From: SAR202 cluster bacterium
GTDB taxonomy: Bacteria > Chloroflexota > Dehalococcoidia > Lucifugimonadales > UBA6927
DNA length: 64,000 bases
NCBI GenBank assembly: GCA_022447855.1
Contig: JAKUTX010000001.1
Coordinates: forward strand, 236,435-300,434
Direction of reading: 5' to 3'
Shown: piece after piece, positions 45,910 to 59,301 of the stretch
Position numbering within the stretch: the stretch's first letter is position 1
Layout: each line of letters opens with the position of its first letter
Notes under the pieces: model-generated
What the model saw: the letters and a program-made list of their open reading frames with translations, nothing else
What the model was told of the DNA's origin: nothing
Databases searched by the model: none
Position numbers and translations under genes: made by a program

Positions 45910-47130
45910 TTGGCGATGTCAAATTACTTAAATACCCTTCAAGAAGCAGTTGATATCCTCTCGAATGGAACTCATTCTTGGATGGAAAGACTTTTCTCTA
46001 AAGGACCTACCGCAGAATTAAAAAATCTCAGTTCTATGAATGTTTGGAACGGATGGATGACTTGGCAAGCAGATTATCGTCCTGCAGATACTGGTTATTT
46101 AACAGGTAGGTTGTGGCTTCTTTATATACTTACAGGTGAGGACGATTTTAAAAACTGGGCTATCCAGTTGATTAAAGGCATGTCATCTGATCTCATAAGG
46201 TACCCTCAACTAAGTCATGTTTCAGGAGTAGATACATATTATGGTCCTGCCTGGGGATATGACATTACTGGAGAAGAAGCTTTTAAAACGCTTTCTTTGA
46301 AATCTGCACAAAATCAAATTGATTCCATATTTAGTGAGAAAACAAACGTGTTTTATTTATCTCATGGTAGAAATGTGGTCAATATTGATTGCACTGCTTT
46401 TTTACTTGATCAGCCATGGGCTGGTAGATACGACAATAAATTTATGGATTATTTCAAAAAGCATAACGACGAAATCTTAAACCTACGAATGGTAAGAAAA
46501 GAAGGCAACTACTTCCAAGTAGCTTATTTTGATTCAAATGAAGAATTCGACTACCTCACTACACACCAAGGATGGAGAGTCGATAGTACTTGGGCAAGAG
46601 GACAAAGTTGGGGAATGCATAATTTCTGTGCCGCATACGAGTCAACTGGAAATGAAAATTACTTGAATGCCGCAATTAAAATGTGTGATTGGTGGGTTTC
46701 TCACAACCCTTCAGATTATATCCCATTCTATGACTTTGAAGACCCCGAGGCATTTAAAAGACCAAAGGATTCTTGTGCCGCGGCAATGGCTGCAACCGCT
46801 CTAATGAGAATATCAAGATACGTTCCAGAAAAGAGTAATTCGTACCAACCTATAATTGAGGGAATATTAACCGAATTAACCGAAAATTATCTCAGCATCG
46901 GCGGCCAATTATTACATGGCAGCTGGGGAAACACCGTTGGTAGATGGAGTAGAGAGTTACGGTTTCCACAAGAAGATATCGTCGCATATGGCAATTACTA
47001 TTTCGTGGAATCCATTTTTCGGCAGCTAGTTCCTGACTGGAGTTTATTTGAATTAAACCCTAAGAACACAAAAATGAACCCACAAATTGCTCAAGACATG
47101 ATTAGCAACCAAATGGATCATCAAAAATGA
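45910..47130 (+). CDS. GH88-like (unsaturated glucuronyl hydrolase family) protein, copy 1
   Basis: By eye it aligns to Bacillus UGL blocks: TGRLWLLYILTG, THQGWRVDSTWARGQSWG, YDFEDP...KDSCAAAMAATAL, YGNYYFVES. ATG 45916 is an alternative start. Confidence 0.7.
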   Translation: MAMSNYLNTLQEAVDILSNGTHSWMERLFSKGPTAELKNLSSMNVWNGWMTWQADYRPADTGYLTGRLWLLYILTGEDDFKNWAIQLIKGMSSDLIRYPQLSHVSGVDTYYGPAWGYDITGEEAFKTLSLKSAQNQIDSIFSEKTNVFYLSHGRNVVNIDCTAFLLDQPWAGRYDNKFMDYFKKHNDEILNLRMVRKEGNYFQVAYFDSNEEFDYLTTHQGWRVDSTWARGQSWGMHNFCAAYESTGNENYLNAAIKMCDWWVSHNPSDYIPFYDFEDPEAFKRPKDSCAAAMAATALMRISRYVPEKSNSYQPIIEGILTELTENYLSIGGQLLHGSWGNTVGRWSRELRFPQEDIVAYGNYYFVESIFRQLVPDWSLFELNPKNTKMNPQIAQDMISNQMDHQK

Positions 47131-48314
47131 ATGAATCAAAAGCCTTCCGATTTAACTCGGAACCCGAGAACCAAAAATACCTCGACATATTAGACTATTC
47201 CATGAATATAGTTGCGGATGGTTCAAATTTGCAAATGAAGCATTTATTCGATGGAGGTAATTCAGGAAAAATTCAGAGAATGAATAATCGTACAGGTCGT
47301 TATAGCCTTGGACCAAATTACGCTTCTGGAGATGTTGGATTATTGATTGGAAGATTATGGTTATTATTTTTGCATTCAGGAAAAACTCAATTTCAAAAAT
47401 GGGCCCTAGATTTAATCAGCCAAATTGAGGAAGACCTTTTAAACAAGGCTTCATTCGATTGTTCTTCTACTTTAGATGTTTTTTTTGGATTGAATCACAC
47501 TGCTAAAATAACTGGTTTAGAAAAATGGAAATATCTTTTCTCTAAAGTGTCCTCAACCATATCAAATGAATTTTGGAATGAAACTGCAAAGTGTTTTGTT
47601 TCAACAAAATATGAAGAAAAACAATTATCCATGGATATAACAGGGGGGATGCTCCCATTACATTCTGAAAACATTTCTAAGAAATCAGAAGAAAGACTCA
47701 TTAAACATTTCGATACAATTTTAGACTTAAACATGATTAGACCAAATGGATCAGTAAGACAATGTGCCGTTTTCGATTCATTTAGTGATTTTTCACACTA
47801 TTCAACAAATCATGGATATGAAGTATTTGATTCGGTTGCCAAAACTCATGCCTCATCAATGCTAAACTTCATTTCTGTTTATGAAATCACTGGACATCAA
47901 AGATTCCTGGACGCAACAATAAAATTGGCAAACTATTGGTGCGAATCAATCCCCGAGGATTGGGTCCCGAGGTACGATTTTACCGACCCTGACCCAAAAA
48001 CCAAACCAAAAGATTCTTGTGCTGCCTCAATTGCAGTTGTTGCAATGATTCGTTTATGTAAAATTCGTCCAGAATTAAATGCACACTATCGTTTAATCAT
48101 TGAAGAAACCCTAAAAACCCTCTCTAAAAAGTACTTAGCTGAGGGAGGTATCCTTTTACATAGTAGTTGGGGTGACCAAAGATGGCACTCAGCTCTCAAA
48201 TTCAAACCTGTACCGTCAAACCTAGTCTTCCCACAAGAAGAAATTCTTCCACTTGGAAATTATTTTTTTGTGGAAGCTATTTTCAGGGAACTAAATCCAA
48301 GTATAAAAATCTAA
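47127..48314 (+). CDS. GH88-like protein, copy 2 (tandem paralog)
   Basis: Same blocks in diverged form (IGRLWLLFLHSG, YDFTDP...KDSCAASIAVVAM, LGNYFFVEA). The ATGA overlaps the stop of copy 1. Confidence 0.7.
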   Translation: MNESKAFRFNSEPENQKYLDILDYSMNIVADGSNLQMKHLFDGGNSGKIQRMNNRTGRYSLGPNYASGDVGLLIGRLWLLFLHSGKTQFQKWALDLISQIEEDLLNKASFDCSSTLDVFFGLNHTAKITGLEKWKYLFSKVSSTISNEFWNETAKCFVSTKYEEKQLSMDITGGMLPLHSENISKKSEERLIKHFDTILDLNMIRPNGSVRQCAVFDSFSDFSHYSTNHGYEVFDSVAKTHASSMLNFISVYEITGHQRFLDATIKLANYWCESIPEDWVPRYDFTDPDPKTKPKDSCAASIAVVAMIRLCKIRPELNAHYRLIIEETLKTLSKKYLAEGGILLHSSWGDQRWHSALKFKPVPSNLVFPQEEILPLGNYFFVEAIFRELNPSIKI

Positions 48315-48316
48315 AT

Positions 48317-49990
48317 TTATTTTCTACCAGCAATTAACCTAGCCATCTCAACTGCAAACCAGAGTGCCAAACTACCTGTACGATCATCATAGCCACATAC
48401 AGCAGTCCGATCTAAATAGTCACGAACAGATTCCATTGCTCCCGTACTTATGCAACCATCCATTACATCCCCATTGTCAGCTATCCTCTCACTTGCCCCA
48501 GTCCAAATTTTGTTCAACCATTCGAGATTTGAAGAATCGATCCAACCTTTCCGTAAACCCCTTGCAGCTGCATAACCTATCATGCAAGTACCTGTCATTT
48601 CCTCATAAGAGCCTTTCAAATCGATGATTTCAAGCCAACGTCCAGAAGGTTGTTGAAATTTTTTCAACCCATCCAACAATCTTCTGTATGAATCTAAAAT
48701 GAATGGCCGTTCAGGATGATCTTCAGGCAACACGGACAAAGTTTCAGTCAAACCTATCGCCGCGAACCCATTCCCTCTTCCCCAATAAATATCGGTATTT
48801 CTATCATGCATAAACAATCCGTCGCTTTTTTGGGTTTTCATATTTTTAAGAAAGGTAACAAGTTTCTGCAAATAAGATTTATCACCAGTTAAAGAGTAGG
48901 CTCTTCCCAATATCGACCCTAGCATAAACATATCCTCCGTTCTCCAAAGAGGATCAGCTGGATGAGGTGGATTGGATTCACTACCTTCCTCAAAGAGATT
49001 TGCAGCATCTACTATTGTTTGTTTATACCTTTGATCACCAGAAAATAAAAACATTTCATCTGCCCAAACCATTCCAGCAATATGAGCAGAACCCGCGGGA
49101 TTATCAGCATATGGATCAATTACACCAGAAACATAATTTTCTGTAAGTCCAGCGATTTCATGAATAGGGTTATTAGTTAGACCTCCATCCATTTCCCACA
49201 ACCTGATTCGACCACTGATTCCTACCCCTTGAACATAATTGATAGGGTTATCAAGTTTGTGTCCATACGTTGAAGCAAGTATCCGTGCTGTGGCAATTGG
49301 AGTTCTTTGCCTACGAGATTCCAGGGTTTTTTGTGCTTGTGAAGCCGGAAATGATCCAGACAATGCAATCAACTTCGAGAGTTCCGACACAACAGAATCT
49401 TCTGGAGAAGATAAACGAAATGCAGGAATGGCTCCTAACCCGCTCGCTCTTGAAAATCCTAATGCATTGACGAAAGAATTATCTTTTGAAACTGGATGTG
49501 CATTCAACTCAGTTGCAATCCCCTGAGCAGCCACATTTGATTCCCAGTGAACCACTTCAGCATTACAAACTTCTACCACTACATCAGGAGCCAAGTAAGA
49601 AACCCAACGCCACAGATATCTAGATTCCGGATTTTTTTCATCATTGAAAAATCCATCATTTGGAGGATATCCTAAAGATGGGCTTCCTCCAGATGAATTA
49701 TTCGGTGACATTGATCGTTCATAACCATCAATGTTAATACACGGAGCAAAACTAATGCTTAAAGTAGAATCAACACATGCTTCAATAGCTCTAAGTGAAG
49801 TGTTTACATCCGCCTCACTCCCAGATAGCCCCCCCACAATTGCAATATTCAAATTTGGAGCATTAACACTCTCTAAAAAAGGAATCTGCGTCTCTAAACG
49901 AGTTACCCCAAGAGCAGAATTATTCCACTGCTTAGAATTAAGTTGAGAAAATTCCTCAACTACTGAATGAATGTTTTTTAGATTTGGCAT
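48317..49990 (-). CDS. Two-domain protein: unknown N-terminal domain fused to a GH105/YteR-like unsaturated rhamnogalacturonyl hydrolase domain
   Basis: The C-terminal half has WGRGNGFAA, QQPSGRWLEIID and EEMTGTCMIGYAAARG blocks, as in GH105. I prefer ATG 49990 (GGAGA 6-7 nt upstream) over the track start at 50068. Confidence 0.65.
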   Translation of the reverse strand: MPNLKNIHSVVEEFSQLNSKQWNNSALGVTRLETQIPFLESVNAPNLNIAIVGGLSGSEADVNTSLRAIEACVDSTLSISFAPCINIDGYERSMSPNNSSGGSPSLGYPPNDGFFNDEKNPESRYLWRWVSYLAPDVVVEVCNAEVVHWESNVAAQGIATELNAHPVSKDNSFVNALGFSRASGLGAIPAFRLSSPEDSVVSELSKLIALSGSFPASQAQKTLESRRQRTPIATARILASTYGHKLDNPINYVQGVGISGRIRLWEMDGGLTNNPIHEIAGLTENYVSGVIDPYADNPAGSAHIAGMVWADEMFLFSGDQRYKQTIVDAANLFEEGSESNPPHPADPLWRTEDMFMLGSILGRAYSLTGDKSYLQKLVTFLKNMKTQKSDGLFMHDRNTDIYWGRGNGFAAIGLTETLSVLPEDHPERPFILDSYRRLLDGLKKFQQPSGRWLEIIDLKGSYEEMTGTCMIGYAAARGLRKGWIDSSNLEWLNKIWTGASERIADNGDVMDGCISTGAMESVRDYLDRTAVCGYDDRTGSLALWFAVEMARLIAGRK

Positions 49991-50165
49991 AATTTCTCCG
50001 CACAATGAACTAAACATAAATAATTTATCGATGCAAGGATACTTATGAACCCCCATTTGGTCAACCACATGAATTCAAAAAGGTATGATTAATTGACCAG
50101 TAAGACTCACTAATATAGACTTGCGATCGAAATTAATTCCAAATTTATATATTAAGGAGTATCCA

Positions 50166-52894: not shown

Positions 52895-53800
52895 ATGCAA
52901 TCAAAAAAACCTCGCAATCTAACATTACTAGAAGCAATTTCTGAAAAAACAGTACTTATATCTGACGGTGCAACAGGGACATACTTACAAAATCATGGCC
53001 TGGAACCTGGTGGTTGTCCTGAAGAATTTAACTCAAGCCATCCGCAAGTCATTAGCCAAATGGCGAAAGACTATTTTGATGCAGGTTCCGATTTAGTACT
53101 AACAAATTCATTCGGCGGAAGTAATTTCATGCAAAAAAAATATGGGCATGGAGATAAAGTTTCTGAATTTAATCGTTTAGCTGCGCAGCATGCCAGAAGA
53201 GCCGCAGGACCTAATAATTACGTTCTGGGTTCAGTTGGACCAACGGGAGAATTTTTATCACCTCTAGGAGATGTTTCTGAAAAAGAAATGTCTCTTGCTT
53301 TTAAAGAACAAATGATTGCCTTAAAGGAAGGTGGAGCTGACGCAATATTAATTGAAACCATGACCGCAATTGAAGAAATTTCACTTGCAATCAATGTAGC
53401 AAAAGAAAGTACAAATCTGCCGGTTATTGCGACTATGGTTTTTGACAAAGGACCAAGAGGGTTTTTTACTATGATGGGAATCACTCCAGAGCGTGCGGCT
53501 AAGGAATTAACCTCTGCAGGTGCTGATATTATAGGAACAAATTGTGGTAATGGTATCGACTTAATGATTGAAATAGCACAACAAATGAGAGCGTCTACAG
53601 ACAAGCCTATGATAGTACATTCAAATGCTGGCATCCCTACAGTAAAGAATGGAGAAATAATATACCCAGAAACTCCTGAATACATGACAGAACGATTCAT
53701 AAAAATTGTGGAACTAGGGGTTAACATTGTTGGTGGATGCTGTGGTACCGGACCAGATCACATTAAGTTATTATCAAAAACCCTAAAACCGTCAGCATAA
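52895..53800 (+). CDS. Homocysteine S-methyltransferase-domain protein (MetH Hcy-domain / BHMT / MmuM fold)
   Basis: LISDGATGTYL, LTNSFGG and the zinc Cys triad context GTNCGNG ... VGGCCGTGPDHI. 301 aa, so a stand-alone domain. Confidence 0.8.
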   Translation: MQSKKPRNLTLLEAISEKTVLISDGATGTYLQNHGLEPGGCPEEFNSSHPQVISQMAKDYFDAGSDLVLTNSFGGSNFMQKKYGHGDKVSEFNRLAAQHARRAAGPNNYVLGSVGPTGEFLSPLGDVSEKEMSLAFKEQMIALKEGGADAILIETMTAIEEISLAINVAKESTNLPVIATMVFDKGPRGFFTMMGITPERAAKELTSAGADIIGTNCGNGIDLMIEIAQQMRASTDKPMIVHSNAGIPTVKNGEIIYPETPEYMTERFIKIVELGVNIVGGCCGTGPDHIKLLSKTLKPSA

Positions 53801-53813
53801 AGGAATAACAAGT

Positions 53814-54491
53814 ATGTATGCAGAAAATTCAACAAAAGACTCAGAAATTTCAAAGGTTTTCAAAAATTTTGGCAGTTGTGTAGAACTAATCCCTATAGAT
53901 CCACACTTCCAAAATGTTTCCATTGGGTTATATGTCCAAAATTCCATCTGCTCCATCTGGTCATTCAGTCAGAAAAAGGGCATCCAAAAAAGGATCGAAC
54001 ACATTCGCGATCAAATGATCCATCTTGGCGATTTAGAACCTATACAGGAATCATTCAATCAAGCCAAATTCCCATGCGGAATAATCCACCAAAGACCATT
54101 AAGGTTTTTAATCTCTCAAGCTACAAATAAAAATCCTGATTTCAAGCATCCATCAGGTGATATTACTATCCAAGACTCAAAGTCAGACCTCAAAATTACT
54201 GCCACACCCAGGGAAAATAATGGAAGTTGGGACTATGCTATAGAGGGAAAAGGTGAAGCGAAGAATGCTTCACTAAGAATCAAAATGATCGTTGCCGGTT
54301 TTATGAAATATGGTGAAATGATAAAAACTTCAGATACTTCTGTAGCATTTGAGTGTGGAAAAAACCATGATAATTTAATGAGAATAATTTTGCCTTATTC
54401 AAGAAATATTTCTAGTGTCGAAGGGATGATGGAAACTGAGGCTCTAAGAGGACAAATGACTACAGGCACGCTAGGATTTAGTGTCACATAA
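53814..54491 (+). CDS. Hypothetical protein (225 aa) inside the corrinoid operon
   Basis: ORF with AAGGA SD-like sequence. 13-nt and 36-nt gaps to its neighbours. No recognisable motif or TM segment. Confidence 0.5.
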   Translation: MYAENSTKDSEISKVFKNFGSCVELIPIDPHFQNVSIGLYVQNSICSIWSFSQKKGIQKRIEHIRDQMIHLGDLEPIQESFNQAKFPCGIIHQRPLRFLISQATNKNPDFKHPSGDITIQDSKSDLKITATPRENNGSWDYAIEGKGEAKNASLRIKMIVAGFMKYGEMIKTSDTSVAFECGKNHDNLMRIILPYSRNISSVEGMMETEALRGQMTTGTLGFSVT

Positions 54492-54527
54492 AAATAAATT
54501 AGTGATAGAATTTGTGAAGGAGCCCAA

Positions 54528-55559
54528 ATGATTTCAGAAATTCCAATGACATCGAAACAAAGAGTGCTTAATTCACTGAATGGTATTCCAGTAGATCGGA
54601 CTCCTTGTGCAAACCCAACAAGTGTTGCAACTGTTGAACTCATGGATCTAGTTAATGCACCTTTTCCAGAAGCTTGTAGAGAACCCGAACTAGCTGCAAG
54701 TCTAGCTGCAACAGGTTACACTGAATTGGGATTCGACAGCATATCACCATATTTTTCAATTATTCAAGAGTCCTCCGCACTGGGATGCGACGTACAATGG
54801 GAAGAAAAAGACAACTGGCCGACTGTGAGAATGTATAATCCTATTTGGAAAAATCCTGAGGATATCAAAATTCCGAAAAATTTCTTACAACATCGCGATA
54901 CCAAAGTACTAACAAAATCTATAGAAATGCTAAGTTCCGCATATGGAGATGAAACTGCTATTATAGGTAAAACCATGGGTCCTTGGACTCTAGCGTATCA
55001 TGTGTTCGGAGTAGAACCATTCCTATTAATGTCAGTTGATGACCCCAAACTTACTTTGGATGTACTTCATAGATTGAAAGAAATATCAGTTTTATTTGGA
55101 GAGGCGCAAATTGATGCAGGTGCTGACGCACTAACTTTCCCTGACCACGCAACTGGAGACCTAGTCAGCGGTGAGTACTACAAAAGATTTCTTATGGAAA
55201 TTCATATAGAAATGGCTGAAAGATTAAAAGTGCCCTTAATTTTACATATATGCGGAAACACTCTAGATAGAATGGAATATATTGCCAAAACTGGAATGGC
55301 GTCTTTTCATTTTGATTCTAAAAATGATCCCCAAAAGGCTATGGACACTGTCGACGGTAAAATAAGTTTAGTTGGAAACATTAACAATCCAGACACTTTG
55401 TATTCTAAAGGACCTGAAGAAGTTCGTGCGGAAGTGTTCAAATGCCTTAACGCAGGAGTACAAATGGTAGCTCCTGAATGCGCTGTCCCTTTATCCACAA
55501 AACTTGAAAATTTGATAGAAATCCCAAGAGCGGTAAAAGCTTGGCACAAAGAAAATTAA
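54528..55559 (+). CDS. URO-D-fold methyltransferase (MtaA/MtbA/MtsA/CmuA family)
   Basis: 343 aa. GAAGGAG SD. Zinc motif LHICGN (H-x-C) plus a downstream Cys in APECAV, as in methylcobamide:thiol methyltransferases. Confidence 0.75.
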   Translation: MISEIPMTSKQRVLNSLNGIPVDRTPCANPTSVATVELMDLVNAPFPEACREPELAASLAATGYTELGFDSISPYFSIIQESSALGCDVQWEEKDNWPTVRMYNPIWKNPEDIKIPKNFLQHRDTKVLTKSIEMLSSAYGDETAIIGKTMGPWTLAYHVFGVEPFLLMSVDDPKLTLDVLHRLKEISVLFGEAQIDAGADALTFPDHATGDLVSGEYYKRFLMEIHIEMAERLKVPLILHICGNTLDRMEYIAKTGMASFHFDSKNDPQKAMDTVDGKISLVGNINNPDTLYSKGPEEVRAEVFKCLNAGVQMVAPECAVPLSTKLENLIEIPRAVKAWHKEN

Positions 55560-55574
55560 TTATAAGGATTTAAC

Positions 55575-56309
55575 ATGCCGATAAACCACGATGGTTTGAA
55601 CGAGGAAATATCTTATGTCTCTAATGAATCAGAAATACAACACATAAAAGGTCTTTTTGACAACTCCGATCCTAAAATGCACGAAATTGCTCATAAGCTG
55701 ATAATTGGTGACCAACATTCAGTCGACGAATTAACTAAAAAAGCTCTTGATGACGGATTTACTGCTAATACAATCCTTGATGATGGATTGATTTCTGGAA
55801 TGGCGATAGTTGGAATCAAATTCCGTGACAATATTATTTTTGTTCCTGAAGTACTAATTGCTGCTAGAGCCATGAAAGCAGGAATGACCCACATCGAACC
55901 AATCTTGTCTGCCTCTGGAATTGAACCCATTGGAACAATCATTATGGGTACTGTAAAAGGAGACTTACACGATATCGGCAAAAACCTATGTATCATGATG
56001 CTCAGGGGTGCTGGATTTACTGTACATGATCTTGGAGTTGATACACAGTCTGAAGAATTTATTGAAGCAGTAATGGAACATGAAGCGCAGCTACTCGGAA
56101 TGTCAGCCCTGCTGACTACAACTATGCCCAATATGGGGAAAACCATAGACGCATTTGAAGAGACTGGAATTCGTAGTGAAGTCAAAATCCTAGTAGGAGG
56201 GGCTCCTGTATCTCAAGAATTAGCGGATGACATGGGTGCCGATGGGTATGGAAAAGACGCAATTGAATGTGTAGATCTAGCCAAAAAATTTGTTGCTATT
56301 AAAAATTGA
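55575..56309 (+). CDS. Corrinoid (cobalamin-binding) protein
   Basis: B12-binding cap helix domain followed by a Rossmann domain with DLHDIG (DxHxxG, nt 55962-55979), MSALLTTT and VGGAP. Confidence 0.88.
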   Translation: MPINHDGLNEEISYVSNESEIQHIKGLFDNSDPKMHEIAHKLIIGDQHSVDELTKKALDDGFTANTILDDGLISGMAIVGIKFRDNIIFVPEVLIAARAMKAGMTHIEPILSASGIEPIGTIIMGTVKGDLHDIGKNLCIMMLRGAGFTVHDLGVDTQSEEFIEAVMEHEAQLLGMSALLTTTMPNMGKTIDAFEETGIRSEVKILVGGAPVSQELADDMGADGYGKDAIECVDLAKKFVAIKN

Positions 56310-56321
56310 ATCGTATTTTCC

Positions 56322-56603
56322 ATGGGAATTAAAGACACCAAAAATCAAATTAATGAGGAACTCGTTAAAGACAAATATATCTCAAGCATGAAAAGACTAG
56401 ACCAGATCATGCGTGATATATCTGAGACCGTAACAGAAGTTTCTTTAAAACGATGCCCATATAGAAACTCTAAAGATCGGTGCACTGCAAAGTTTGGGTG
56501 TAGAAATCAATATAGAGATGTACAACCGAATGAATTATTCATTTGCCAAGATGACCAAAAGTTAGATTATCGCAATGCATGGGAAATGGAATCTGAACCC
56601 TAA
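56322..56603 (+). CDS. Small Cys4 protein of unknown function
   Basis: 93 aa. Four Cys spaced C-x8-C-x5-C-x14-C. Located between the corrinoid protein and the activase genes. Confidence 0.45.
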   Translation: MGIKDTKNQINEELVKDKYISSMKRLDQIMRDISETVTEVSLKRCPYRNSKDRCTAKFGCRNQYRDVQPNELFICQDDQKLDYRNAWEMESEP

Positions 56604-56646
56604 AACATCTCAAAAAATTCGATAAACTCCATGTTACAATACTCAC

Positions 56647-58269
56647 ATGTCTCCTGTACGATGCTCTGGACAAGTAATAGAATCAAAAATCGGATCCTCT
56701 TTATTCGATTATGCTGATGCAATCAATGTGCGTGTGCCTACCTCCTGTGGTAGAAATGGACAATGCCATGAATGTATTGTTGAAATCAACTCTGGAGGAG
56801 AATTTTTAAATGATTCTACTGAGGAAGAATTCTTCCTAGGGGAAAAATTTCGATTGGCTTGTCAAGCAAAGATTACAGATGCAGACAAAACAATCGAATT
56901 TTCTATATTGCGCAGACAACCCAAAATCCTCATCGAATCGATTAATCGCTCTGTCTCAACAGACCCAATGGTTCAAAGAAACGGCGATACAGTAACTTTT
57001 AATGGGTCCTATCTAGATCAATACAGAAACTCCATCTTAGGAATCGCCGCAGATATAGGAACAACCACAATAGTTATGAATTTGGTCGATTTAGAAACTT
57101 CCAATATCTTAGCCACTTCATCATTTGAAAACCCTCAAAAATTTGGTGGAAGCGACATCATGAATAGAATTTCATATGATGGTGGCAAATTTAAAGGCGA
57201 ATTAAGACAAGTCATGCTATCTGCTTTAAATTTTGAAATCGGAGAGATTACCAAACAAAACAATCTTCATAGAAGACAAATCTACGAAGCTGTATTCGTC
57301 GGAAATTCTACAATGAGAGATTTGTTATTCAATTATGATGTGCAGTCAATTGGTCAAAAACCTTACAGATCAATCACTGAAACCCTTTTCCTGAATGGAG
57401 AAATCGATTCAACTGCATTAAATATGAAAGCAAATGATTTTGGATTAAGAATTTTCCCGGATGCGAATATTTATGGTGGTCCATTAATAGGTAGCCATGT
57501 TGGATCAGATGTTGCAGCCGATATTCTAAGCACTGAAATTGGAGAGAAAAAAGACATCTCAATGCTAGTCGACATAGGTACAAACACTGAAGTAGTTTTG
57601 GGCAACGAAGAAAAAATGATAGTAGCATCTTGTCCTGCAGGGCCAGCATTTGAAGGTGGAGAGATTTCATATGGCATGCCTGGATATGATGGAGCAATAG
57701 AATCACTTATGTTTTCAGAAAGTGGGACAGAATACAGAACTATCGGAAACAAAAAGCCTCAAGGGATTTGTGGATCTGGTTTAATTCAAATTTTATCTGA
57801 ATTATTACGAACACAACAGATGAATGAACTGGGGGTTTTCGATAACAAAAAGCAAAAAATTGTCCTAGAGCCCACCCAAGAAATTTCTATTTCAAGATCA
57901 GATGTTAGTTCATTAGCTCAAGCCAAATCAGCTAATTACGCGGGGCAATTCATTACAATGCGTTCATACGGGATTAATACAAATCAAATTTCAAAACTTT
58001 ACTTAGCAGGAGGATTCGCAAACTACATCGACCCAGAATGCGCAATAGGAATCGGATTTCTTCCCAATATTTCTCCAAAAAAAATCACAAAAGTTGGAAA
58101 CGCTTCACTAGAAGGAGCAACCATAATGCTAAAATCAAAATTTCATCGCAGACAAATAGAAGAAAAAGTTAAATCTATTGAACATATCGAATTAGAAACT
58201 TTCGATGATTTTTTTGAAATTTTCGTTGAAGGATGCATGTTTAAACCAATGCCGAAAACCCTTGTATGA
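56647..58269 (+). CDS. Reductive activase of corrinoid enzymes (RACE/RamA-like; 2Fe-2S ferredoxin domain plus ASKHA ATPase, DUF4445-type)
   Basis: N-terminal CGRNGQCHEC...C plant-type 2Fe-2S motif. GIAADIGTTTIV and LVDIGTNTEV ASKHA phosphate loops. 540 aa. Confidence 0.8.
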   Translation: MSPVRCSGQVIESKIGSSLFDYADAINVRVPTSCGRNGQCHECIVEINSGGEFLNDSTEEEFFLGEKFRLACQAKITDADKTIEFSILRRQPKILIESINRSVSTDPMVQRNGDTVTFNGSYLDQYRNSILGIAADIGTTTIVMNLVDLETSNILATSSFENPQKFGGSDIMNRISYDGGKFKGELRQVMLSALNFEIGEITKQNNLHRRQIYEAVFVGNSTMRDLLFNYDVQSIGQKPYRSITETLFLNGEIDSTALNMKANDFGLRIFPDANIYGGPLIGSHVGSDVAADILSTEIGEKKDISMLVDIGTNTEVVLGNEEKMIVASCPAGPAFEGGEISYGMPGYDGAIESLMFSESGTEYRTIGNKKPQGICGSGLIQILSELLRTQQMNELGVFDNKKQKIVLEPTQEISISRSDVSSLAQAKSANYAGQFITMRSYGINTNQISKLYLAGGFANYIDPECAIGIGFLPNISPKKITKVGNASLEGATIMLKSKFHRRQIEEKVKSIEHIELETFDDFFEIFVEGCMFKPMPKTLV

Positions 58270-58299
58270 TTAAGAATACTTATCGAAATGGAGTCAATA

Positions 58300-59301
58300 A
58301 TGTCATATAAAATCTTGATCACTGACTATGTCTGGCCAAACATTGAGCCAGAAAAAAAAGTACTATCTTCAATAGATGCTGAAATTATTGTTGCGCCAAA
58401 CTCTGACGAAAATACTCTTTGTTCACTAGCTAAAGATGTTGATGGGATTTTAACCTGTTTTGCTCAAGTCACAGAAAAAGTGATTCGCTCTGCAAAAAAA
58501 TGTGTAGTCATAGGAAGATATGGGGTTGGAGTTGATAACATTTCAGTAAGTACTGCAACTGATTTAGGCATCGCTGTAACATACGTTCCTGACTACTGTA
58601 TGGAAGAGGTGTCAGATCATGTTATAGGCTTAATGTTATGTTGGAACAGAAAAATAGCTTTTTTTGACTCCGACACCAAGCAAAATGCATGGGGCCATTC
58701 CCCCCTAACCATGAGAATAATGCGACTGAAAGGTAAAACTATTGGAATAGTAGGTTTCGGTAGGATTGGAAAAGCAGTAAGCCAAAAAGCAAAATCTTTT
58801 GGAATGAATATTCTAACTTATGACCCTTTTGTTTCCCAAACAGAAGCAGCCTCATTCGGAGTTAACTCAACCAGTCTTGAAAATCTGCTTCAATGTTCTG
58901 ATTTCGTTTCTCTGCACTCACCATATACAGAAGAGACACACAATATGATAGGACAAGAGCAATTAGATTTAATGAAATCCGATTCGTTCCTAATAAACTG
59001 CGCTAGGGGTCCATTAATTGACGAAGAAGCATTATTTGAAGCTTTAAAATCAAAAAATATTGCTGGAGCCGGCTTGGATGTTATGGTTGATTCTATACCT
59101 CCATCCAACCATCCTTTAATGAAATTGGATAACATATTGATTACTCCACACATTTCTTTTTTCTCCCAAGAATCCGTCCTCGAGCTTGAAGAACGTGCTG
59201 CCGAGGAAGTAAAATCCGTATTGCTTGGCCAAATGCCCGAAAACCTAGTCAACAAAGAAGTTCTTAAACACTCTCTACCAAGACACAAACTATCCAAATA
59301 A
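58300..59301 (+). CDS. D-isomer-specific 2-hydroxyacid dehydrogenase family protein
   Basis: GIVGFGRIGKAV NAD loop. Catalytic region ...NCARG...D...HISF. Start at ATG 58300 (GGAG upstream); the track start is 58288. Confidence 0.85.
   Translation: MSYKILITDYVWPNIEPEKKVLSSIDAEIIVAPNSDENTLCSLAKDVDGILTCFAQVTEKVIRSAKKCVVIGRYGVGVDNISVSTATDLGIAVTYVPDYCMEEVSDHVIGLMLCWNRKIAFFDSDTKQNAWGHSPLTMRIMRLKGKTIGIVGFGRIGKAVSQKAKSFGMNILTYDPFVSQTEAASFGVNSTSLENLLQCSDFVSLHSPYTEETHNMIGQEQLDLMKSDSFLINCARGPLIDEEALFEALKSKNIAGAGLDVMVDSIPPSNHPLMKLDNILITPHISFFSQESVLELEERAAEEVKSVLLGQMPENLVNKEVLKHSLPRHKLSK

Follow-up and report, generated by a model that had tools for sequence, protein, structure and literature searches.

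Gene organisation of the locus

The window analysed here is a stretch of 64,000 nucleotides from a SAR202 cluster bacterium. It carries a gene of 225 codons, hereafter X, in the following arrangement:

52895..53800, + strand: Hcy-binding methyltransferase domain protein of the MetH type, 301 aa (PF02574 S-methyl_trans, E 2.7e-66)
53814..54491, + strand: X, 225 aa, ATG start, member of an unnamed family (ORF list, direct reading of the sequence, homologs)
54528..55559, + strand: MtaA-like URO-D family methyltransferase, 343 aa (PF01208, E 7e-65; PRK06252, TIGR01463)
55575..56309, + strand: corrinoid (B12-binding) carrier protein, 244 aa (PF02607 and PF02310)
56322..56603, + strand: small protein of the module, 93 aa, conserved, four invariant Cys (no Pfam match)
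56647..58269, + strand: RACo/RamA-type ATP-dependent reductive activase with an N-terminal 2Fe-2S domain (PF14574, PF17651, PF00111)
58288..59301, + strand: D-2-hydroxyacid dehydrogenase (PF02826/PF00389)

X and the genes for the URO-D enzyme, the corrinoid protein, the small 4-Cys protein and RACo follow each other in this order, the five-gene arrangement that is treated below as a module. From 35.9 to 64 kb of the window, the ORFs of 150 aa or longer included neither a transporter gene nor DUF1638, and no + strand terminator was found inside the cluster.

X is a real gene. The stop codon of the Hcy-domain gene (53798-53800) leaves a gap of 13 nt before it, and a Shine-Dalgarno sequence, AAGGA, lies 9 nt ahead of its ATG. 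The X stop (54489-54491) is separated by 36 nt from the URO-D ATG at 54528, which is itself preceded by GAAGGAG. The deduced protein has a pI of 7.7 and no TM segment, the Kyte-Doolittle mean over 19 residues peaking at 0.78. The tight spacing, the ribosome-binding site and the lack of TM segments described in the first-pass annotation were all borne out by sequence reading and hydropathy. From the base composition of this DNA (38.5% GC), the chance of an open frame of 225 codons is about 2e-7 per start, and comparison with a 78%-identical ortholog (locus L001) indicated purifying selection (dN 0.113, dS 0.659, dN/dS about 0.17).

The best PDB match of the Hcy enzyme of the window was the Hcy domain of Thermotoga maritima MetH (1Q7M, E 2.5e-53), with which its GTNCG and GGCCGT zinc-Cys motifs align; it is the probable acceptor side, passing the methyl group from methyl-corrinoid to homocysteine. 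The URO-D enzyme clears the NCBIfam cut-offs (TIGR01463 mtaA_cmuA / PRK06252) with 242.6 against 235.4 bits and 254.7 against 244. Its best PDB match was MtaA (4AY7, E 1.5e-46), and the zinc-ligand positions of MtaA (H-x-C ... C) are kept in LHICGN and APECA, which align with 4AY7, so that family scores and zinc ligands both place it with MtaA/CmuA. It is the probable donor-side enzyme (MT1) of the module, and its MtaA-type zinc ligands would suit a methyl-thioether, a thiol or a similar substrate. In the small 4-Cys protein C45, C54, C60 and C75 were invariant in 106 of 106 homologs, and this protein is fused to the N-terminus of RACo in loci L086/L087.

Family and architecture of X

Close homologs of X (subfamily A) numbered 365, were of the same length and came from SAR202/Dehalococcoidia, Entotheonella and SAR324. 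A sister subfamily (B), about 29% identical to X, has at least 1275 members from Acidobacteriota, Gemmatimonadota, Alphaproteobacteria and soil and ocean metagenomes. The family is large, unnamed and has no recognisable fold. The protein had been called unrecognisable, and this held for all three collections searched: the best Pfam-A 2025 match was Phage_pRha (E 0.19, 12.8 bits against a cut-off of 29.9), NCBIfam r20 gave none, and the PDB sequence search (best E 0.79) and a profile hmmsearch against PDB were likewise empty. All 240 homologs listed lacked Pfam domains in precomputed annotation, and none had an informative name. A plasmid search for a cultured carrier gave no match, and no X-like protein is described in the literature searched.

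The suggestion that X might be DUF1638-like was not supported. The PF07796 HMM did not match the X of the window or ten diverse relatives from both subfamilies at E<=1, and no DUF1638 gene was annotated in the ten X loci with Pfam annotation; at the level of these HMM searches no homology of X to DUF1638 was detected. Apparent domain fusions to X in P0153, P0134, P0127, P0140 and P0196 resembled frameshift or mis-assembly chimeras with low-complexity tails and were rejected, as was P0217, an ankyrin-repeat false positive.

X is an internally duplicated alpha/beta protein. The AF2 model of the X of the window reached a pLDDT of 81.5 and a pTM of 0.75, and a second, independent AlphaFold model, of a subfamily-B member, had a pTM of 0.83. 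A duplicated beta3-alpha-beta-alpha unit was seen in both AF2 models, and alignment of the N-half with the C-half by hhalign gave a probability of 97.3% (E 1.7e-11), pairing R60 with R155, F86 with F179, C88 with C181 and H92 with H185. The following parts were delimited:

53862..54143, + strand: repeat 1, residues 17-110, beta-beta-beta-alpha-beta and then F86-P-C88-G-I-I-H92 at the helix start (AF2 and hhalign)
54144..54428, + strand: repeat 2, residues 111-205, closing in F179-E-C181-G-K-N-H185 (AF2 and hhalign)
54393..54488, + strand: C-terminal segment, residues 194-225, putative partner-docking tail (conservation and low pLDDT)

The fold, for which AlphaFold and Foldseek had been suggested, was not identified: at E<=0.001 there was no match for two AlphaFold models against PDB and for one against BFVD. 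The top Foldseek matches (PUR-alpha, Arp2/3 subunits and RNA polymerase subunit L; TM 0.15-0.4) were discarded as noise. PUR-alpha repeats and X have in common a pseudo-dimer of two beta-sheet-plus-helix repeats, but the Foldseek match was non-significant (E 0.08-0.1, TM 0.15-0.26), sequence similarity is nil and the context of X is not one of nucleic acids.

No motif had been assigned to X previously; F-x-C-G-x-x-H was found twice (C88/H92 and C181/H185), together with a C-terminus that is hyperconserved. Each repeat supplies one Cys and one His, and the quartet was whole in 281 of the 285 full-length members. The remaining four have lost two to four ligands, and loss of a single ligand was never seen. 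Because of the pseudo-symmetry and this pattern of joint loss, C88, H92, C181 and H185 appear to form a single Cys2His2 metal site at the pseudo-dyad, in which the metal would most likely be a structural zinc. The C-x3-H motifs, which occur twice at beta-to-helix junctions, did not conform to a Rieske or Cys2His2 [2Fe-2S] arrangement, and Rieske proteins were not matched by Foldseek with the X models. Two of the quartet-less variants, P0123 and P0121, still lie in the gene order X - URO-D - corrinoid protein - small gene, and the C-terminal tail is kept in all four; the occurrence of such variants in clusters that are otherwise intact speaks against a catalytic metal centre.

The C-terminus reads LPYSRNISSVEGMM..EALRGQMTTGTLGF. 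Residues 194-222 hold most of the invariant columns of alignment A1, making the tail the most conserved part of X, and over residues 201-225 the mean pLDDT drops to 56, 43 and 33, with a similar drop in the subfamily-B model. D29, R60, D121, Y141, R155 and N198 are the other invariant polar residues.

Conservation of the gene cluster

Synteny was read in 80 genome loci for subfamily A and in the 46 loci listed for subfamily B. The URO-D gene lies downstream of X in 72 of the 80 subfamily-A loci, which are all 72 that hold both genes, in 46 of the 46 subfamily-B loci and in the intermediate-clade loci L169 and L170. Genes for the corrinoid protein, the small 4-Cys protein and RACo come next wherever the downstream flank reaches. 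The first-pass idea that X is a component of the corrinoid cluster was supported: X is conserved and dedicated, with its place kept over both sets of loci and the same four partners recurring in both subfamilies. The URO-D enzyme, the corrinoid protein, the small 4-Cys protein and RACo are the invariant partners of X family-wide.

Inserts of selfish genes between X and the URO-D gene ranged from 0 to 4.4 kb in the subfamily-A loci. The genes concerned (PIN/toxin-antitoxin-like, DNA-methylase and sporadic ORFs) occur in subsets only and were rejected as extra components. The D-2-hydroxyacid dehydrogenase gene follows RACo in about 35 of the 80 subfamily-A loci, and it is uncertain whether it belongs to the system.

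The gene for the Hcy enzyme is directly upstream of X in 78 of the 80 subfamily-A loci. The position of X between Hcy-domain and URO-D genes, as first described, stands for the SAR202 branch but not for the whole family, where the Hcy-domain enzyme is replaceable. The acceptor-side enzyme varies by locus, being a MetH-type Hcy domain in the window and a pterin-binding methyltransferase, MTHFR or PurU elsewhere, and MT1 enzymes of the MttB, MtaB and MtmB types were absent from the annotated loci. Six subfamily-A loci have the Hcy enzyme and X as a pair with no URO-D gene within 8 kb downstream, which hints at a link between these two proteins. The A-type tail of X is paired with an A-type Hcy enzyme directly upstream (the window and L170), but some loci with a B-type tail also carry an A-like Hcy enzyme, 41-43% identical, downstream of RACo.

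Between the A and B clusters the URO-D enzyme (68% identity), the corrinoid protein (70%), RACo (53%) and the small 4-Cys protein (47%) are orthologous. X shows 29% identity and the Hcy enzymes, which are not orthologous, 27%. Among subfamily-B loci of several phyla the URO-D enzyme is 80-88% identical. Pairwise distances of X correlated with those of the URO-D enzyme (r 0.91), RACo (0.90), the corrinoid protein (0.88) and the Hcy enzyme (0.78); the partial correlations with RACo (0.44) and the URO-D enzyme (0.43) were equally strong.

Role of X and relation to known systems

The usual description of a corrinoid methyl-transfer system has three parts and an activase. To these the X module adds two conserved proteins, X and the 4-Cys protein, both without a family in Pfam or NCBIfam. 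Very probably X is a component, overlooked so far, of a methyl-transfer machine that depends on B12. Our preferred reading, to which we give a probability of roughly one half, is that it is a dedicated and probably non-catalytic subunit of the five-gene MtaA-type module, with a partner and a substrate that we infer. The module would transfer a methyl group from its donor to protein-bound cob(I)alamin, and a separate, exchangeable enzyme would pass it on, to homocysteine in the window and to tetrahydrofolate elsewhere. X may serve on the donor side as an adaptor or specificity subunit together with the URO-D enzyme and the corrinoid protein, with its C-terminal tail folding onto a partner protein; it would position or select the substrate or the partner, leaving the methyl-transfer chemistry to others. 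An MT1 gene usually stands directly before that of its corrinoid protein, and the URO-D gene occupies this position. Against an extra subunit it can be said that, to our knowledge, other URO-D-type MT1 enzymes, namely MtsA and the O-demethylases, need no X-like protein. The same is true of CdmB, a characterised URO-D-type MT1 (PMC13222342).

A role in reactivation is possible but unlikely. X would then assist RACo and the 4-Cys protein in reducing cob(II)alamin back to cob(I)alamin. It might, for instance, let electrons in or handle the cofactor, with a redox-active Fe or Fe-S in its Cys2His2 site, and would be the functional counterpart of DUF1638 in the split-MetH/RamA systems of aerobic bacteria. 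X is as strict a companion of RACo as of the URO-D enzyme, and the distance correlation of X and RACo, partial correlation included, points the same way. DUF1638, for which no function has been proposed, is required for a split MetH, and in Ruegeria it is induced with RamA (PMC12478193); the lack of an annotated DUF1638 gene in the ten annotated X loci is compatible with replacement. Yet X is found only with one URO-D orthogroup and not with RACo clusters generally, and the DUF1638 HMM does not match it. The persistence of quartet-less variants in intact clusters would not be tolerable for a redox centre, RACo has a 2Fe-2S domain of its own, and the protein found fused to RACo is the small 4-Cys protein and not X.

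DUF1638 (PF07796; PGA1_c13340 of Phaeobacter inhibens, SPO2162 of Ruegeria pomeroyi) and X are both mechanistically uncharacterised proteins that go with the corrinoid-protein and RamA/RACo systems found in aerobic bacteria (PMC5764234, PMC12478193). The association comes from mutant fitness and phylogenetic profile for DUF1638 and from synteny only for X. No relationship between the two was detectable by HMM, and the annotated X clusters have no DUF1638 gene. The DUF1638 systems are of the MttB type, whereas X goes with one MtaA-like URO-D orthogroup; on the side of X there are also the internal duplication, the Cys2His2 quartet and the conserved tail.

That X is an assembly factor outside the working complex, such as a chaperone that supplies the URO-D or Hcy enzymes with zinc or the carrier protein with its corrinoid, would agree with its metal-binding-type motif, with its place beside two zinc enzymes and a B12 protein, and with a flexible tail that could recognise a client or hand over to it. 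We regard this as distinctly improbable. X matched no chaperone family in Pfam, NCBIfam or Foldseek searches, and the zinc and B12 chaperone families known to us are GTPases or have recognisable folds. Its Cys/His site is dispensable in some lineages, and strict one-to-one operon membership beside the URO-D gene seems more typical of a stoichiometric subunit.

X could also be the substrate-activating MT1, like MtaB. Its Cys/His zinc would polarise the methyl donor so that Co(I) can attack it, and the URO-D enzyme would act as a second, thiol-directed methyltransferase. The annotated loci encode no MT1 of a classical family, the Cys/His site is conserved together with the invariant polar residues listed above, and the faster divergence of X, compared with its partners, could fit a specificity determinant. 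We nevertheless think that there is little chance of this. Four protein ligands leave the metal without an open coordination position, and lineages that lack two to four of them retain the tail and, in the two loci read, the cluster. X showed no similarity to known corrinoid MT1 enzymes (MtaB, MttB/MtgB, MtmB, URO-D-type or pterin-binding) by HMM, PDB search or Foldseek; the solved MT1 enzymes known to us are TIM barrels, but X is predicted to be a 25-kDa alpha/beta protein of two repeats for which Foldseek found no methyltransferase match. The adjacency of the URO-D and corrinoid protein genes is, moreover, the usual MT1 arrangement.

The methanol:CoM system of Methanosarcina (MtaB-MtaC-MtaA) and the X module are both corrinoid relays in which an MtaA-type zinc enzyme is combined with a corrinoid protein and an ATP-dependent activase, and both encode alongside a further protein with a metal site, putative in the case of X. 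MtaB is a TIM-barrel enzyme of about 50 kDa with a catalytic zinc, whereas X is half that size, has no fold match and has a Cys/His site that some lineages dispense with. The final acceptor is CoM in Methanosarcina and, as proposed here, homocysteine or tetrahydrofolate, reached through a separate enzyme, in the X module.

That X merely hitch-hikes, is a regulatory gene unconnected to methyl transfer or is not a gene at all is disfavoured to the point of being scarcely credible, since nothing except the missing annotation speaks for it, while its length is kept, its dN/dS is low, its operon position is the same over at least six phyla and two subfamilies, and no DNA-binding or sensor domain was found by Pfam in the X of the window and ten diverse relatives. 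Conservation is wide, coding statistics are good and a housekeeping match is absent, the three points on which the first-pass annotation had let the gene stand or fall.

Type 1 mlp clusters of anaerobic bacteria, which are MtaA-like, have been proposed by Kountz and Balskus to serve methyl-sulfur or methyl-selenide metabolism (PMC10418091). They have two or three URO-D paralogs, are confined to obligate anaerobes and have no folate methyltransferase, and no X-like protein is mentioned for them (PMC10418091). The X module, on the contrary, has one URO-D enzyme together with X and the 4-Cys protein, is found in such groups as SAR202, Acidobacteriota and Gemmatimonadota, and has links to MTHFR, PurU, and pterin-binding and Hcy-binding enzymes. 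The split methionine synthase / glycine betaine demethylase MtgBCDE of marine Roseobacters shares with the X module a corrinoid protein common to a donor-side MT1, a pterin-binding methyltransferase and a homocysteine module, as well as reactivation by RamA (PMC12478193). The back-end genes of MtgBCDE are those of the subfamily-B clusters, but its MT1 is of the MttB family, whereas the donor side of the X module is the URO-D enzyme plus X.

The X module is widespread in abundant, mostly uncultured bacteria of ocean and soil, including SAR202, sponge symbionts, Acidobacteriota and Gemmatimonadota, and many genomes connect it to MTHFR, PurU, pterin-binding enzymes and homocysteine methylation. 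Since the URO-D enzyme is so similar across the subfamily-B phyla and is wired to folate and homocysteine, the module probably handles a common environmental methyl compound. A more specific and doubtful proposal is that it is a cobalamin-dependent route for the demethylation of sulfur compounds (DMS, methanethiol, MMPA or similar) in aerobic bacteria, with delivery of the methyl groups to tetrahydrofolate or directly to homocysteine. X would then be a subunit with a new fold that serves the zinc site of the MtaA-like enzyme, either by capturing or presenting the thioether or by handling the thiol or sulfide formed. No cobalamin-dependent 'DMS methyltransferase' has yet been identified in aerobic bacteria (PMC6548844), and the X module is a concrete, testable candidate for it. 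Knowledge of the structure and a binding partner of X would establish a new protein family and perhaps also a new fold.

The 225-aa reading frame and its relatives

Analysis of the nucleotide sequence, with a listing of open reading frames, indicated that the only long frame at the site is 53814-54491 (+), encoding a protein of 225 aa, here called X. The stop codon of the upstream gene (53798-53800) is separated from the ATG at 53814 by 13 nt, with AAGGA 9 nt ahead of the ATG, and the stop codon of X (54489-54491) is separated by 36 nt from the ATG of the next gene at 54528, which is preceded by GAAGGAG; these readings agree with the tight spacing inside a corrinoid operon and the reasonable Shine-Dalgarno sequence reported in the first-pass annotation. 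All genes from the Hcy enzyme through RACo, the reductive activase, are on the + strand, and no terminator-like site was found on that strand from 52895 to 59301.

Genes of the corrinoid module and its neighbours in the window
52895-53800, +, homocysteine-binding methyltransferase domain protein (Hcy enzyme; PF02574)
53814-54491, +, X
54528-55559, +, URO-D family protein, scoring above the NCBIfam thresholds of the MtaA/CmuA family
55575-56309, +, B12-binding corrinoid protein (Pfam/NCBIfam search)
56322-56603, +, 93-aa ORF without family, four invariant cysteines (4-Cys protein)
56647-58269, +, RACo-type activase with 2Fe-2S domain (Pfam/NCBIfam search)
58288-59301, +, D-2-hydroxyacid dehydrogenase, after RACo

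The PF02574 and MtaA/CmuA-family matches bear out the flanking of X by homocysteine-domain and URO-D methyltransferase genes, and the reported lack of a transmembrane segment was reproduced, X having no hydrophobic stretch (highest 19-residue Kyte-Doolittle mean 0.78). Coding statistics were not poor: comparison with the 78%-identical ortholog in locus L001 gave dN 0.113 and dS 0.659, indicating that the frame is under purifying selection, and by arithmetic a 225-codon open frame at 38.5% GC has a chance of ~2e-7 per start. X and the URO-D gene share a reading frame and the intervening 36 nt hold two stops (TAA AAA TAA); no homolog gave any sign of read-through or fusion of the two.

The protein had been described as unrecognisable, which holds for the curated collections: Pfam-A yielded only a sub-threshold match to Phage_pRha (E 0.19), NCBIfam yielded none, the PDB sequences had no match below E 0.79 to the single sequence or below E 0.27 to the family profile, and a Pfam search of ten diverse relatives found no match. 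By the searches run X lies outside DUF1638 and all curated families. X is, however, not an orphan of this genome. At E<=1e-3 a large protein collection contained 365 homologs, nearly all of them 222-227 aa long, named only 'hypothetical protein' and derived from Chloroflexi/SAR202, and the profile of the X family, run exhaustively against cluster representatives, gave 235 matches, among them a distant group of ~210 aa at about 25% identity. With the profile of this group at least 1275 more proteins were recovered, again with no name but hypothetical; they come from Acidobacteriota, Gemmatimonadota, Alphaproteobacteria and numerous metagenomes of soil and marine origin. Subfamily A here denotes the SAR202-type branch and subfamily B the other one; X of the window and a Gemmatimonadota subfamily-B member are 29% identical.

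Conservation of the gene cluster in two subfamilies

The scan for subfamily A, in which each species was represented by a single genome, yielded 225 loci. The 80 that were retained are nearly all from Dehalococcoidia/SAR202 MAGs, with the addition of Candidatus Entotheonella/Tectimicrobiota and one SAR324 bin. The order determined by tblastn was Hcy enzyme, X, URO-D, corrinoid protein, small (4-Cys) protein and RACo, often followed by a 2-hydroxyacid dehydrogenase (after RACo in about 35/80 loci); the dehydrogenase at 58288-59301 may be a pathway member, acting for example on the demethylated product or in serine-cycle chemistry, or a conserved bystander. The Hcy enzyme was directly upstream of X in 78/80 loci. 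URO-D was downstream in 72/80, the spacer measuring between 36 nt and 4.4 kb; it was absent within 8 kb downstream of the Hcy enzyme - X pair in six full-length loci (L022, L025, L027, L045, L055 and L066) and also absent in L010 and L040, the latter at least stopping at a contig end. The adjacency in 78/80 loci and the pairs that stay together without URO-D suggest that X is linked to the Hcy enzyme. The X - URO-D spacer is an insertion hot spot (0.5-4.4 kb) in Dehalococcoidia MAGs (L004, L006, L009, L014, L019, L025 and others); the PIN/toxin-antitoxin-like, DNA-methylase and other sporadic ORFs of the long spacers were rejected as conserved components.

The survey of subfamily B covered annotated contigs together with 80 metagenome loci, 46 of the loci being long enough for listing. 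URO-D followed X in all 46, and corrinoid protein, small protein and RACo followed wherever the downstream flank reaches. The surroundings were variable and included a divergent GntR/FCD regulator, a pterin-binding methyltransferase, PurU, MTHFR with a DUF5981 C-terminal domain, a PF13769 protein and an Hcy-domain protein of a different kind. Both the PF13769 ('Virulence_fact') protein of ~90-110 aa and the MTHFR-DUF5981 protein recur in L084, L086, L088, L096, L104, L152 and L163, where they accompany the genes of the pterin-binding and Hcy-domain proteins on either the downstream or the upstream side of the module. Loci of an intermediate clade retain the core, including those of homologs P0123, which has neither Cys, and P0121, which has neither His.

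Comparison of the window with the Gemmatimonadota cluster gave identities of 68% for URO-D, 70% for the corrinoid protein, 53% for RACo and 47% for the small protein, while the Hcy enzymes (27%) are not orthologous. The URO-D protein (54528-55559; counterparts in L081-L168) is conserved to an unusual degree, being 80-88% identical across subfamily-B loci of several phyla, and its identity between cluster types is far above that of X, RACo and the Hcy enzyme.

The co-occurrence across genomes that the first-pass annotation proposed to examine was thus observed in both subfamilies, and X is, with a probability of about 0.9, a dedicated component of the corrinoid module. The earlier suggestion of a new component stands as regards this membership, on the synteny of two subfamilies.

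Duplication, Cys/His quartet and C-terminal tail of X

Structure prediction and Foldseek searches, as had been recommended, gave two AlphaFold2 models with an identical order of secondary-structure elements, one of the window protein (40 homologs; mean pLDDT 81.5, pTM 0.75) and an independent one of subfamily B (55 homologs; pLDDT 86.4, pTM 0.83). Neither had a match at E<=0.001 in the PDB, nor had the window model in BFVD; the top-ranking matches, PUR-alpha repeats (E ~0.08-0.1, TM 0.15-0.26), were not significant and were rejected. Judged from these models X is without a solved-structure neighbour, which does not by itself prove a new fold.

Profile-profile alignment of residues 17-110 with 111-205 (probability 97.3%, E 1.7e-11) paired R60/R155, F86/F179, C88/C181 and H92/H185, which together with the repeated secondary structure indicates a tandem duplication. 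Each repeat is closed by F-x-C-G-x-x-H where a strand passes into a helix. Across 285 full-length members drawn from the two subfamilies D29 is invariant and R60, D121, Y141, R155, G162, N198, R212 and G213 are nearly so, while C22 is found in subfamily A only. The quartet C88, H92, C181 and H185 is C-H-C-H in 281 of the 285; the exceptions (QIDH, SLDY, CNCN and KLQN) have lost both His, three or all four ligands, and loss of a single ligand was never seen, as expected for a single cooperative four-ligand site. From these alignments we infer that the pseudo-dyad carries a putative metal site of Cys2His2 type.

In subfamily A conservation peaks at the C-terminus, LPYSRNISSVEGMM..EALRGQMTTGTLGF, where nearly all positions are invariant in 40 sequences; the conserved ending of subfamily B is a different one, R-A-x-N-V-R-A...R-G-V-L-x-A-P-S-A-Q. 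Model confidence is lowest at this tail in both models (10-residue pLDDT means of 56, 43 and 33 in the window model, 54 and 48 in the subfamily-B model). Hyperconservation without confident packing on the predicted monomer is typical of a segment whose folding requires a partner's surface. The tail is retained in each of the four quartet-less variants, and tail type does not cleanly track Hcy-enzyme type.

Probable role of X and probable chemistry of the module

We give an even chance to X being an adaptor or docking subunit in an accessory role. This reading draws on the strict operon place that X keeps upstream of URO-D in both subfamilies despite their deep divergence, the conserved tail of low pLDDT, a structural-type four-ligand site shed by rare lineages that keep the tail, a divergence faster than that of the catalytic partners, and the lack of folds or motifs that would mark an enzyme class. 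A less probable rival is a reactivation partner beside RACo, a functional analogue of DUF1638, a protein needed for split MetH for which no function has been proposed (PMC5764234). Co-occurrence and co-variation tie X to RACo no less than to URO-D, and a DUF1638 gene is absent from the annotated X loci; against this, X is limited to one URO-D orthogroup, and the fusion partner of RACo is not X but the 4-Cys protein. Pairwise distances of X in 36 subfamily-A loci correlated at 0.91 with URO-D, 0.90 with RACo, 0.88 with the corrinoid protein and 0.78 with the Hcy enzyme (partial correlations about equal, 0.43 for URO-D and 0.44 for RACo); since a single phylogeny underlies all of these proteins, the evidence is weak. 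X itself as catalyst is disfavoured, since quartet-less variants persist (two still within the gene cluster), the putative metal would be fully liganded and there is no barrel fold.

The 4-Cys protein, kept in 106 loci of both cluster types, has no Pfam family and carries R-C-P-Y-K-N-x4-C-T-A-x-F-G-C-R-N-x14-C with four invariant cysteines. A fusion of it to the RACo N-terminus (638-aa product) occurs in L086/L087, and the protein probably serves the activase as an additional metal or Fe-S domain.

The best solved relative of the URO-D protein is MtaA (4AY7, E 1.5e-46), a methylcobalamin:CoM methyltransferase, whose zinc-binding His-x-Cys and distal Cys are aligned and conserved. That of the Hcy enzyme is the Thermotoga MetH homocysteine domain (1Q7M, E 2.5e-53), with conserved zinc cysteines. 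URO-D directly before a corrinoid protein is the usual arrangement of a donor-side methyltransferase (MT1), and no MttB-, MtaB- or MtmB-type donor-side enzyme was annotated in the loci read. On the most parsimonious view URO-D, with X, would place a donor-derived methyl group onto the Co(I) corrinoid protein, and an exchangeable second enzyme would hand it to homocysteine, as in the window, or to tetrahydrofolate for oxidation, as in many subfamily-B clusters; oxidised cofactor would be repaired by RACo, possibly with the 4-Cys protein. Conservation of the MtaA-type zinc site suggests a thioether or thiol substrate, and for related MtaA-like clusters of anaerobes an action on methyl-sulfur or methyl-selenium compounds has been put forward (PMC10418091).

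The subfamily-B back-end (pterin-binding enzyme, MTHFR, PurU, Hcy module and RamA-type activase) matches the split methionine synthase/demethylase scheme demonstrated by genetics in Roseobacters, where, however, the donor-side enzyme is an MttB-family protein and not URO-D (PMC12478193). A corrinoid-dependent methyl relay is a known kind of system. The characterised URO-D-type system Cdm consists of MT1, corrinoid protein, MT2 and activase with no extra protein (PMC13222342), whereas the present module has two extra conserved proteins; no X-like protein is mentioned for the mlp clusters of anaerobes (PMC10418091), and the literature searches run turned up none. The version with two extra proteins, in aerobic ocean and soil lineages, appears undescribed. 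The module would matter most if it were the cobalamin-dependent methyl-sulfur demethylation route of aerobes, still unidentified according to the literature (PMC6548844), a speculative link that we consider quite improbable.

Elsewhere in the window, two paralogous adjacent ORFs, 45910-47130 and 47127-48314 (+; 406 and 395 aa, 4-nt overlap), had no Pfam match at E<=1e-4. They adjoin a GH88-domain protein (48317-50068, - strand), a ThuA-like protein and an enolase-superfamily protein, and the genes of the 45910-50068 region with the latter two neighbours may form an uncharacterised sugar-acid or uronate utilisation set.
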